Source: Anaerohalosphaeraceae bacterium
GTDB taxonomy: Bacteria > Planctomycetota > Phycisphaerae > Sedimentisphaerales > Anaerohalosphaeraceae
DNA: 28,633 nucleotides
Direction of reading: 5' to 3'
Assembly: GCA_050309605.1 (NCBI GenBank)
Contig: JBNRMN010000017.1
Coordinates: 1-28,633 of the forward strand
The translations under genes and the position numbers were made by a program. Of the stretch, positions 18,873-21,495 are shown piece after piece (position 1 is the stretch's first letter; every line of letters begins with the position of its first letter). The notes beneath the pieces were generated by a model, which searched no databases, was not told where the DNA came from, and worked only from the letters and a program-made list of their open reading frames with translations.

Positions 18873-19895
18873 ATGGGTTCTCGTCAGGGATGGACAGCCC
18901 GGCCGGTTGCCGGTGCGGTGTGTGCCGCGGTATTTTACAGCCTGTGGGCGGTGCTGTTGTTTTTGCCGCACGCCAAGAGCCTGTCATCGTCCTTTCGGTT
19001 GCTGTATGCGGTCAATCCGGCGGTTGCCGCCGCAGGTGTTTTTTTTCTGAGCCGACGGTGGGTGGCCGGCTGGATGCCTGCCGCGACGGCGGGGTGGGTC
19101 TATGGGTTTGGCCCTTTCGGACTCAGCTTTATCGGCTTTCATCCCTTGACAGGGTTTACGTTCGCCGCCGTTCCGTGGCTGCTGCTTCCCGCGGTGTATT
19201 GGCATCGGCGATATAGACCCACTGCGATGCGTTTTTTGGTGCGGGCGGTGTTTTGCCTGCTGCCGTTTGCCTTTATCATAGTGTTCTTCTGGACATTTTC
19301 ACAGCATTGGGCCGGTCGGTTGTTTCTACTGCCCAAAAAAACCATGTTGTCCGGATACGATTTTCTGGGGTTGTTTTTTCCGCTTTCGATGACCGGTCGT
19401 CCGGTTGTGCTGAGTGTGACTCATTTTGGGTTGCCGGCACTGCTGATGGGGGTGTTTGTGTATGTATCCGCTCAGCGGGTCGCGGTCTTGATCCTGCCGG
19501 CCGTCGGGCTTGTTTTGGCCTTTCTGAATCCTGTTTTCGGCGTCAGTCCGGTGATCTGGGCGGCTCTGCCGATGGTTTTTCTGGCCGTGCTGTCCGGCGT
19601 CGGGATCCAAAGCCTGATGTGGGCGGGTAAGAATGATTCAAAATGGGTCCTGTGCTGTGTCCTGACGGCCGGGGTGACGGGGGGTGTTTCGTGGCTGTTG
19701 TCTATGTCGAATCAATCGATGGTATATTACAATTCCGCCTTATTATATCTTATATCAATTCTTGTCTTTGGTGTGGTGTTCCTTTTGAGCCGGGCTTCAC
19801 TTCGCTGGTTGACGGTACGATGGCTTCTGCTGGCCGGCACAGCACTGACCGATTGCTATATATCCGGCCGCTGGCTGATTGAAAAGCTGCTCTGA
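18873..19895 (+). CDS. Uncharacterised multi-pass membrane protein, weakly YfhO/GT-C-like
   Basis: Many hydrophobic segments; GVFFLSRRW..AATAGWVYGFGPF..H..VPWLLL pattern; AAGGAG RBS; 23 nt after purM. Confidence 0.75.
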   Translation: MGSRQGWTARPVAGAVCAAVFYSLWAVLLFLPHAKSLSSSFRLLYAVNPAVAAAGVFFLSRRWVAGWMPAATAGWVYGFGPFGLSFIGFHPLTGFTFAAVPWLLLPAVYWHRRYRPTAMRFLVRAVFCLLPFAFIIVFFWTFSQHWAGRLFLLPKKTMLSGYDFLGLFFPLSMTGRPVVLSVTHFGLPALLMGVFVYVSAQRVAVLILPAVGLVLAFLNPVFGVSPVIWAALPMVFLAVLSGVGIQSLMWAGKNDSKWVLCCVLTAGVTGGVSWLLSMSNQSMVYYNSALLYLISILVFGVVFLLSRASLRWLTVRWLLLAGTALTDCYISGRWLIEKLL

Positions 19896-19966
19896 GGGCC
19901 TGTAAAAGGCTCTTTGCATCCGGTTTCCAAAGATTGTATCAGCACGATAGCAATAATTGGGCGGCT

Positions 19967-20059
19967 GCATAATTGGTCTGGAATTTGGTATAACTGATTC
20001 TGATATGACCCGTTCCGACAAATCCACGCATAATTGGTCTGGAATTTGGTATAACTGAT
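19967..20059. repeat. Two exact 32-bp direct repeats separated by 29 bp
   Basis: GCATAATTGGTCTGGAATTTGGTATAACTGAT at 19967-19998 and 20028-20059; spacer TCTGATATGACCCGTTCCGACAAATCCAC. Confidence 0.92.
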
Positions 20060-20085
20060 AGGTAATGTTTTGTGTCTGGTTTTCC

Positions 20086-20185
20086 AAAAAAAGTGGCGAG
20101 GATCGCGGCACCGTCTGGGGGGGAAAACGGATAACCACTTCGCCTCGCCGAGGATTATCGACAGGCCCGAAGGCCTCATTGTCAT
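20086..20185 (-). ncRNA. Candidate ~100-nt structured small RNA of unknown family
   Basis: Upstream near-consensus promoter; 5' hairpin GACA..GGCC-UUCG-GGCC-UGUC; long stem GGCGAGG..GUGG..CCGUUU-UCCCCCCC-AGACGG..CCGC..CCUCGCC; U7 tail. No credible ORF. Confidence 0.6.
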
Positions 20186-20190
20186 CAGCT

Positions 20191-20219
20191 AATATATCGG
20201 TATGGAAACACAATGTCAA
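20191..20219 (-). promoter_or_regulatory. Near-consensus sigma-70 promoter driving the candidate sRNA
   Basis: TTGACA (20219-20214)-N17-TATATT (20196-20191), with an AT-rich upstream tract. Confidence 0.7.
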
Positions 20220-20329
20220 CACCTTTTTCAAAAAAAATTAAAGAAAATGAGAATTATCCAAATGTCCACCCCGCCGACTTCCTTTCGACGATACTCAAAC
20301 AGGTTTTTATGGGTCGGCTTCAAAACCGC

Positions 20330-20358
20330 TTGCATTGACCGCATTTTTGCATTACAGT
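20330..20358 (+). promoter_or_regulatory. Putative sigma-70 promoter for top6A-yggS
   Basis: TTGCAT-N17-TACAGT; AGGAG before ATG 20401. Confidence 0.5.
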
Positions 20359-20400
20359 AAGGCCGTAATTTTTCAAGATCTCGCAGGAGTAACCCAACGT

Positions 20401-21495
20401 ATGGCTCGAAGTTTAAAAAGTCCCGTTGTCGAACGGATCAAAGGCAACGCCAACGATGTGTATAAAAAAATCCTGGCTAACCAGAAGCCGACGATGAGCA
20501 CGCCTATCCGCTCGCTGTCGAACGTCAAATACAGCGCGCGCAAAGGCCATTTCGAAATGCAGGATCGCGCCAAAAAACGCACCCTGACCGTCAGCACCGT
20601 CAAGACCTTTGCCCAGACGCTTAAAATGATGGCGCTGTCCAAAGATCTGATCGAAACCGACGACATGGCCACCAAACGAGAAGCGTACTATATCTCAAAG
20701 AACTGGGGCAAAGCCGGCTTTGATGAACAGCCCGAATCCGATACCATTATGGATGACATTGAGGCGATGTTCGGCGTCAACCGCGAGCAGCTAAAGTTTG
20801 TCCCTGAAGAAAAAGGCGGCGATGTCGCCGGTCGGCTGGTCGTGGTGGACAAAGACGCCTCCGGCAAAAAACTCCGCATCGACTGCACCAAATTCGGCTC
20901 CGGCGCGTATTCCATCCCCGTTGAAGTCGAAGACCTGAAGTTTGAAAGCAAAGCCAAATTCATCCTGGCCATTGAAACTGCCGGCATGTTTCAGCGTCTG
21001 GTTAAATACGATTACTGGAAGACGGCCGATTGTATTCTGGTCAGTATGGGCGGCGTGCCGACGCGGGCGTGCCGACGCTTCATCCGCCGTCTGAGCGACA
21101 GTCTGAAGATCCCGGTGTATGCCTTTGTGGACGGCGACCCCTACGGATATTTTAACATCTACCGCACCCTGAAGGTCGGCTCCGGCAATGCGGCGCATCT
21201 CAATGAGTTTTTCTGTGTCCCCAAGGCGTCCTTTCTGGGCGTTACGCCGCAGGACATCAAAGATTATGATCTGCCGACGCATCCGCTCAAGGATGTTGAC
21301 ATCAAACGTGCCAAAGACGCGCTGAAGAACGATCCCTTTGTCAAACATCACAAGCAATGGCAGCTTGCAATCAATCAAATGCTCAAGCTGGGCGTGCGCG
21401 TCGAACAGCAGGCTTTTGCCAAACACGGCCTGGATTTTGTCGTGAATGAATACTTACCGTATAAGCTGAAGAATGCCGCTAAGTTTTTGCCGTAG
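20401..21495 (+). CDS. top6A: DNA topoisomerase VI subunit A (Spo11-like)
   Basis: TKREAYY catalytic-Tyr motif, F.EQ.ESD.IMDDIE, NREQL, TOPRIM LAIETAGMF.RL, GGVPTRACRRFIRRL, DGDPYG, EQQAFA. Confidence 0.95.
   Translation: MARSLKSPVVERIKGNANDVYKKILANQKPTMSTPIRSLSNVKYSARKGHFEMQDRAKKRTLTVSTVKTFAQTLKMMALSKDLIETDDMATKREAYYISKNWGKAGFDEQPESDTIMDDIEAMFGVNREQLKFVPEEKGGDVAGRLVVVDKDASGKKLRIDCTKFGSGAYSIPVEVEDLKFESKAKFILAIETAGMFQRLVKYDYWKTADCILVSMGGVPTRACRRFIRRLSDSLKIPVYAFVDGDPYGYFNIYRTLKVGSGNAAHLNEFFCVPKASFLGVTPQDIKDYDLPTHPLKDVDIKRAKDALKNDPFVKHHKQWQLAINQMLKLGVRVEQQAFAKHGLDFVVNEYLPYKLKNAAKFLP

Follow-up and report, generated by a model that had tools for sequence, protein, structure and literature searches.

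In Bacillales, RsaE/RoxS (about 100 nt) carries more than one unpaired C-rich motif, and these are thought to pair with SD regions; its regulators and targets are known. In sX13, a proteobacterial RNA of Xanthomonas, short C-motifs are carried on three loops. Helicobacter pylori, the host of RepG, has no Hfq. The RNAs CsrB and RsmZ titrate or scaffold CsrA, a protein that binds GGA motifs. 6C of Actinobacteria uses its C-rich loops to bind RBSs that are rich in G, for instance AGGGGGG, and needs no chaperone to do so (PMC6486639). By full-text searching of the literature, no description of a regulatory sRNA from Planctomycetes or Phycisphaerae was found.

Here we describe a predicted sRNA of about 100 nt, encoded on the minus strand at 20086..20185 of a 28,633-nt stretch of DNA from an Anaerohalosphaeraceae bacterium (the whole of this stretch is referred to as the window). 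Its 5' end was placed from the -10 box and its 3' end from the U-tract, and the RNA sequence written in the initial annotation is exactly the minus strand from 20185 to 20086. The sRNA represents a previously uncatalogued RNA family of a functional kind that is already known. It resembles RsaE/RoxS in its size of about 100 nt and in its C-rich unpaired motifs, which are here a linker CCUC and a loop C7, but these motifs differ in length and position and no homology was detected in Rfam scans. With sX13, which is described as an abundant and conserved sRNA, it has C-rich loop motifs in common; sX13 differs in its three loops and its proteobacterial lineage, and no sequence relationship was found. 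The likeness to 6C consists in C-rich loop seeds, here proposed ones, against G-rich RBSs, in independence from Hfq and ProQ and in conservation over a large clade (PMC6486639). 6C differs in having two C-rich loops, against one here in most families (three modules in family f5), and in its fold. In our RNA the C-loop caps the terminator and no match to the 6C Rfam model was observed; neither this genome nor most families showed more than a single hairpin with a C-rich loop. RepG is a short sRNA with two stem-loops and a C/U-rich pairing loop on the terminator hairpin (PMC8295292). The same arrangement is present here, with UUCCCCCCCA atop the stem and U7 after its base. The two RNAs have no sequence or Rfam relationship and belong to different phyla. 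RepG targets a phase-variable G-repeat in one leader (PMC8295292), whereas no such partner was found here; G-runs near starts were listed, and none proved to be a conserved partner.

Transcription unit and predicted fold

The intergenic region that holds the sRNA is flanked by top6A and by a gene of unknown family for a 340-aa protein (18873-19895, plus strand), the latter convergent to the sRNA. Upstream of the predicted 5' end, promoter scan identified a -10 box TATATT (20191..20196, minus strand), preceded by a conserved CCGA, and, with a spacer of 17, a -35 box TTGACA (20214..20219, minus strand). The combination TTGACA-N17-TATATT scores 11/12 against the sigma-70 consensus. It had been called the best promoter in the window, and this was borne out, as no other site on either strand of the 28.6-kb window scores 11/12 and six others score 10/12. 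The whole genome has 25 sites of the form TTGACA-N16-18-TATAnT, of which 19 do not lie in crude ORFs and one precedes a tRNA gene, indicating that the organism uses this consensus. The sRNA promoter is likely to be a strong housekeeping-type promoter. Just 5' of the -35 box there is an A/T-rich stretch, UUUUUUUUGAAAAA (20224..20237, minus strand), which may serve as an UP element; in 20 aligned loci, a run of T and then A-rich sequence line up 5' of TTGACA. A sigma-28 reading of the conserved CCGATAT was dropped, as the -35 box is a perfect TTGACA and sites of the form TAAA-N14-16-CCGATA lie mostly within ORFs. Among the homologous matches listed (see below), TTGACA is found upstream in 27 of the 33 loci whose core is of the CCGTTT type and in 56 of the remaining 94, and CGATAT in 23 of the former 33.

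For homologues outside family f1 (for instance L039, L040 and L050), TTGACAG was observed about 80-85 nt 5' of the core, followed by TAGnnT-like boxes, so that the RNA there may have an extra 5' part of about 40 nt; a motif GCUCUUUAA/GAAAU recurs in this possible extra part. In these families a GGGGTG..CACCC hairpin often lies 5' of the promoter, and the word GGGGTG occurs in 22/94 loci among the matches listed.

Among public sequencing runs on record as RNA, none was listed with the region 19700-20700. Two compost runs labelled 'transcriptomic' were examined, both flagged as probably DNA; one contig of 194 nt from them spans 20041-20234, including both gene and promoter, at a depth of 2.7. 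From the conserved promoter and terminator, we infer that the sRNA is transcribed.

The 100-nt RNA is predicted to fold with an MFE of -38.2 kcal/mol (z = -2.93), and one of 200 dinucleotide shuffles folds as well. The MFE fold consists of a 5' hairpin, ten unpaired bases GAUAAUCCUC, a long 3' stem-loop with the loop UUCCCCCCCA, and then U7. The 5' hairpin, GACA..GGCC-UUCG-GGCC..UGUC (20160..20183, minus strand), is conserved in structure and free in sequence. A hairpin of at least 4 bp was predicted in the corresponding 36 nt for 119 of 127 homologues among the matches listed, and for these 127 the mean z is -2.3 against mononucleotide shuffles. The cUUCGg tetraloop that the initial annotation had noted was detected only in this genome and one congener; elsewhere the sequence of the 5' hairpin differs. 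The linker GAUAAUCCUC (20150..20159, minus strand), with the consensus AUAAACCUC, is unpaired in the MFE fold.

The long 3' stem-loop (20095..20149, minus strand), identified by fold and covariation, doubles as the intrinsic terminator. It is built of an outer helix GGCGAGG/CCUCGCC, a middle helix GUGG/CCGC and an apical helix CCGUU/AGACGG, and within the apical loop UUCCCCCCCA the C7 run (20117..20123, minus strand) is the proposed seed, chosen by its conservation. The U7 tract read at 20086..20092 (minus strand) completes the terminator, and at least five T within the first 8 nt past the stem were found in all 128 loci (128/128) among the matches listed. A simple terminator scan omits the sRNA terminator because its rule wants a short uninterrupted hairpin with a loop of 3-8 nt. 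That the feature exceeds chance is argued from conservation and covariation, not from the fold of the single sequence.

The search of known RNA classes was performed with Rfam 15, which gave no gathering-level match in the whole window. For 19900-20334 at E<=10, the sole match was a mammalian lncRNA (E = 7.4) over the promoter region, which was judged junk, and 0 matches were obtained for 10 homologous loci at gathering level and for four divergent loci at E<=1. ARAGORN found nothing, and SRP RNA and 6S RNA are located elsewhere in the genome. The initial annotation had stated that the RNA does not resemble tRNA, SRP, 6S, tmRNA or RNase P RNA, and had proposed an Rfam scan; these results agree with the statement, and the scan places the RNA outside Rfam. 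A tRNA-like reading of GGCGAGG...CCUCGCC-A was rejected, given the empty ARAGORN result and a middle that falls short by about 18 nt. The view of the locus as an independent structured non-coding RNA gene is upheld by its own promoter, its own intrinsic terminator, its intergenic position and the lack of a conserved reading frame.

Conservation, covariation and distribution

Using 19900-20334 as a BLAST query against 40 relatives and the source genome, matches were obtained in 31 of the 41 genomes, always to the 3' ~70 nt and with 76-90% identity; the flanks of the sRNA were matched within the genus only. In 20 aligned loci the promoter TTGACA/TATAnT is conserved and the 5' hairpin is kept with free sequence. 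There follow, in the same loci, an invariant AUA-ACCUCGGCGAGGC, an invariant CCGUUUyCCCCCCCAGACGG, middle-helix arms that vary yet stay complementary, and then CCUCGCC and the U-tract. Across the 19 relatives that BLAST had identified, the C run does not vary.

With each species represented by a single genome, a pattern scan was performed; counting the loci obtained before, it yielded at least 140 matches. Seven of these were dropped as chance, having cores of 47-66 nt, G+C-rich coding-looking DNA and non-planctomycete titles; at least 133 matches with cores of 54-56 nt were kept, 128 of them distinct among the matches listed. The labels of their records, as given, are almost all from Planctomycetota (among the matches listed) and name Sedimentisphaerales, Phycisphaerae, Anaerohalosphaeraceae, many 'uncultured Pirellulales' MAGs and one 'Ca. 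Kuenenia' MAG. Except for L128, which was left out for its short flank, these loci were assembled into a core alignment of 127 rows (A2, among the matches listed). The three-helix structure pairs 99.9% of the cells of A2, compensatory changes were observed in seven pairs among the matches listed, none of 500 shuffles reaches any of five measures, and controls with slid pairing gave 0-2 compensatory pairs. Within the linker, the bases C, U and C each show full or at least 90% conservation in A2 (among the matches listed), and in divergent families the motif changes to CCAC or CUCUC.

For most rows of A2, the scan pattern itself had imposed an unvarying outer helix, and for this reason a covariance model of the 3' 71 nt (R1) was built and divergent homologues outside the reach of the pattern were collected with it. 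The resulting alignment of 33 homologues, divergent ones included (A4), has 97.5% of its cells paired and compensatory changes in 12 of 16 pairs. Three of the seven outer-helix pairs are compensatory. GGCGAGG/CCUCGCC is replaced by GGCCAGG/CCUGGCC in eight rows, and GGCUAGG/CCUAGCC and GGGCCGG/CCGGCCC also occur. A4 was fitted to the covariance model and is biased towards it, and slid controls gave 39-46% paired cells, indicating that the pairing signal is real.

The apical loop is the most conserved element of the RNA, and remains so where the outer helix is altered on both of its strands, in line with the attention first drawn to the C7 loop. The C run has seven C in 115 and eight C in 13 of the 128 loci among the matches listed, the pattern having forced at least seven, and it ranges from five to eight C in those homologues for which the covariance model was the sole means of detection. 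Core lengths are 54, 55 and 56 nt in 104, 21 and 3 loci, respectively (among the matches listed), and such differences of 1-2 nt exclude a reading frame. This bears on the reading of the RNA as a small protein-coding or dual-function transcript, for which overlapping ORFs of 109 aa or 144 aa on the minus strand could be invoked and for which the AUG at the predicted 5' end, opening a 109-codon frame (19856..20185, minus strand), might speak. The 109-aa ORF gave no Pfam match, however, the AUG and the 5' region are not conserved, the homologue cores differ by 1-2 nt, and the substitutions track base pairing instead of codons; the probability of a coding role is thus negligible. Altogether, we are highly confident that the locus is a real, conserved and structured sRNA gene.

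Of 151 genomes sampled from the order, 129 gave an R1 match; for those of high quality the count is 106 of 118. By family within the order, the counts are 41/43 for f1, 15/25 for f2, 3/3 for f3, 0/1 for f4, 24/26 for f5, 2/2 for f6, 43/43 for f7 and 0/7 for f8. Outside the order but within the class, matches are weaker (E about 1e-10 to 7e-6) and were obtained for 8/8 genomes of f88, 1/4 of f95 and 1/19 of f86. In an evenly drawn sample of the phylum, seven of 151 genomes matched, and the strong matches are those of the source genome and one genome of the same order only. The five weak matches of this sample (E = 2e-4 to 5e-4) lack the loop or helices and were treated as chance. The R1 searches employed strict filters with 33 first-look candidates scored per genome, and a genome counted as having no match is accordingly one in which the RNA was 'not found', which is not to say 'absent'.

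Most genomes carry a single copy of the sRNA gene. In several f7 genomes a second, shorter paralogue with a CCCCCA loop was observed. The f5 locus L172:100-430 (genome G198) contains one TTGACA/TATAAT promoter, three tandem C-loop modules and one final terminator, and tandem matches about 150 nt apart recur in several f5 genomes.

Neighbouring genes, direct repeats and cis-acting readings

The gene upstream of the sRNA, top6A (20335-21495), encodes TOP6A/Spo11 Pfam domains. Its true start is probably the ATG at 20402, behind AGGAG; alignments of the relatives begin at residues 16-31 of the longer top6A frame. The amino-acid identity of top6A is 81-91% across genera of the family, which is unusually high. 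In the window, the gene that comes after top6A is YggS-like and is not top6B.

As sRNA genes often adjoin their partners, we considered that the sRNA and top6A are under a common divergent control region and that the sRNA acts on top6A expression. The gene top6A lies upstream and divergent in 16 of the 20 loci with 1.5-kb flanks, the source locus included, and upstream in six further short-flank loci among the matches listed. Against this local role, the leader and start of top6A contain neither a G-run nor a complement to the loop or CCUC, and the two transcripts need not overlap, with about 150-215 nt between the sRNA 5' end and the top6A start. Furthermore, top6A was detected in only six of 108 loci with flanks of up to 400 nt (among the matches listed), where an adjacent gene should show its first 40-70 residues. 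Local control of top6A is therefore regarded as very unlikely.

On the 3' side, a convergent yjbQ-like gene follows the sRNA in 61 of 128 loci among the matches listed; the downstream neighbours being convergent, there is no gene for a leader to serve. The initial annotation had offered an attenuator or scaffold controlling read-through into a repeat unit, and a related alternative is a cis-acting leader for read-through into downstream DNA or a mere terminator common to convergent genes. Such readings draw on the 3' stem-loop, which is a terminator, and on a short conserved UGCGC past the U-tract in 83/128 loci among the matches listed. A gene on the same strand 3' of the RNA is present neither here nor recurrently in the 128 loci among the matches listed; this speaks against a riboswitch or other leader. 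Conserved helices that exclude each other were not detected. A plain terminator, moreover, needs no strong promoter of its own, no 5' hairpin and no invariant loop.

The alternative hairpin needed for attenuation is not maintained. The sequence AUCCUCG does occur twice in the RNA, as direct reading confirmed, and GAGG had been proposed to pair locally with CCUC. In 7-8 of 33 sequences this local pairing is disrupted, precisely at the points where compensation is seen in the terminator helix, and its own compensatory changes number 0. The second alternative, AAGUGG with CCACUU, relies on the variable bases after CCUCGCC (A, then C, U or A) and was likewise abandoned.

The repeat unit itself consists of perfect 32-nt direct repeats at 19967-19998 and 20028-20059, 29 nt apart and just 3' of the sRNA terminator, and these are the only two copies in the whole genome. 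The region of the repeats (query positions ~276-368) gave no match in the 40 relatives, for which BLAST matches span query positions 82-260 only. With repeats unique to this genome and the RNA detected in 129 of 151 genomes of the order, the RNA is not functionally tied to the repeats, and the read-through proposal was given up. Overall, we judge an attenuator, a leader or a mere terminator to be highly improbable.

The U-tract is followed by (A)UGCGC in the above 83 of 128 loci (for example L024-L143, among the matches listed), and by GGAAA in its place in the source genome; the motif may be part of the 3' end or a termination-context signal.

In its geometry the 32-nt repeat pair equals a mini-CRISPR array with a single spacer, but its sequence is A/T-rich. 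The assembly graphs of two DNA runs break at this repeat, where the depth is doubled. CRISPR arrays elsewhere in the source genome, at G000:C29:2300-4200 and G000:C13, have repeats unrelated to the 32-nt repeat, and one of them includes a G6 run. A CRISPR/tracrRNA reading of the RNA together with the repeats was rejected: no complementarity between RNA and repeat was found by eye, and the repeat is absent from the relatives and unlike the genome's own CRISPR repeats.

Proposed action of the C-rich loop

With modest confidence, we propose that the RNA is a chaperone-independent, trans-acting base-pairing sRNA with the C-rich terminator loop as its seed. The stand-alone gene would be transcribed from a strong sigma-70-type promoter and the transcript ended by its own intrinsic terminator. 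The 5' hairpin, which needs only be a hairpin, probably protects the 5' end, and it would be followed by a short, unpaired, A/U-rich linker ending in CCUC, possibly a second, anti-SD-like seed. The terminator hairpin would present the nearly invariant U/C-rich loop UyUCCCCCCCAG, whose C-run, perhaps aided by the CCUC linker, would pair with G-rich single-stranded sites. G-run SD sequences or G-tracts in 5' leaders are candidate sites, at which the pairing would block ribosome binding or alter mRNA stability. An all-G:C seed would make Hfq or ProQ unnecessary, and searches for Hfq and ProQ gave no match in the 99.7% complete genome. Trans action, the seed and every target named below are to be taken as putative.

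SDs of the host are of the AGGAGG type at -15 to -6, and some tens of genes carry G5-6 runs there instead. The C7 loop would pair perfectly with a G5-6 SD and with an A.C mismatch on GGAGG, and could thus single out a subclass of genes. We then searched for a signal of such pairing. Duplex energies between the loop and TIRs (windows -45..+21 of 2,799 crude genes) gave no excess over windows inside genes, duplexes of -18 kcal/mol or below being found for 8.6% of TIRs vs 8.7% of within-gene windows. Genes with a G-run SD form a mixed set; signal-peptide-like/secreted or large proteins account for 16 of 35, compared with 47 of 95 genes with GGAGG (p = 0.84), giving no enrichment for this category. 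Since a G5 SD pairs with the anti-SD via one G.U, the sRNA is not needed to explain the G5 SD.

Individual candidates were treated in the same way. A 598-aa protein (C34), the most promising candidate at first sight, was rejected as a target, since its G6 is kept in four of 30 orthologous loci and lies about 30 nt 5' of the real start. A formyltransferase-like protein (C96) was also rejected: it has one true orthologue, with an alignment that starts at residue 22, indicating that the annotated start is wrong. For a family of 391-aa secreted proteins (G000:C67:96946-98128; L213, L248, L249-L262), a G5-6 SD was observed in seven of nine loci from three genera, the remaining two loci having GGAGG or GGGAGG. 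This family is a lead for a target of the loop, but simple SD variation would account for its G5-6 run just as well.

As the complement of the loop, the 11-mer CTGGGGGGGAR was counted by hand tally 246 times in the order, against about 47 for the reversed control. About 115 of the 246 matches are the sRNA gene itself, and 12 others that were inspected lie mostly in apparent coding sequence, several at Trp-Gly-Gly codons. Tracts of G8-G10 were also found in the genome, those inspected being located in promoter spacers or coding DNA. A G10 tract lies between TTGACA and TATATT at G000:C9:11021-11030. At G000:C68:31683-31690 and G000:C70:5041-5049, G8 directly follows TTGACA and G9 stands just 5' of TTATAAT, respectively. 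These poly-G tracts of 8-10 in promoter-like elements are candidates for phase variation by slipped-strand change of spacer length.

The lack of an mRNA target signal in the energy, orthologue and enrichment tests bears also on another interpretation, that the C-rich loop on its fixed stem is recognised by an RNA-binding protein and that the RNA titrates or scaffolds this protein without mRNA pairing. Repeated loop modules are typical of decoy RNAs, and the f5 locus L172 has three C-loop modules between a single promoter and a single final terminator. All 114 of 114 rows from the order have an identical outer helix (among the matches listed), though it can covary elsewhere, and the U.G pair that closes the loop is fixed in 112 of 114 rows (among the matches listed). 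A fixed outer helix and a fixed U.G pair would fit protein recognition as well as pairing, but in most rows it was the scan pattern that kept the outer helix from varying. No candidate protein is known. CsrA is present in the genome, but the RNA is without the GGA motifs, multiple in loops, of the CsrB/RsmZ type; direct reading found no GGA in a loop. In addition, base pairing is the mode of action of C-rich sRNAs with several loops, 6C being an example (PMC6486639). A protein decoy is the chief alternative, though rather unlikely, and base pairing in trans is the reading that we carry forward.

A wider proposal, which we offer tentatively and regard as doubtful, is that the C-loop module, present in one to three copies per transcript, is the RNA half of an unknown global post-transcriptional system in Phycisphaerae free of Hfq and ProQ. 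The module could be either a decoy for a putative protein that reads C-rich loops, similar to CsrB/CsrA but inverted in its sequence logic, or else a reader of the RepG kind for G-run SDs and phase-variable poly-G tracts.

The sRNA provides an entry point to these questions, having mostly one gene per genome, a structure backed by covariation and a C7 loop open to mutation. The covariance model R1 and the alignments A2 and A4 could become an Rfam family. About 85% of the genomes sampled from the order have the RNA, and this order, to judge from record and run labels, is a common inhabitant of anaerobic digesters and of sediments. The same C-loop theme is known from Actinobacteria, Bacillales and Epsilonproteobacteria, and chaperone-free pairing of a C-rich loop to G-rich sites would herewith be extended to a fourth distant lineage. 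If the role of a RepG-like reader is true, a single RNA would govern how an entire class of genes is translated, a class with no other defining mark than a G-run.
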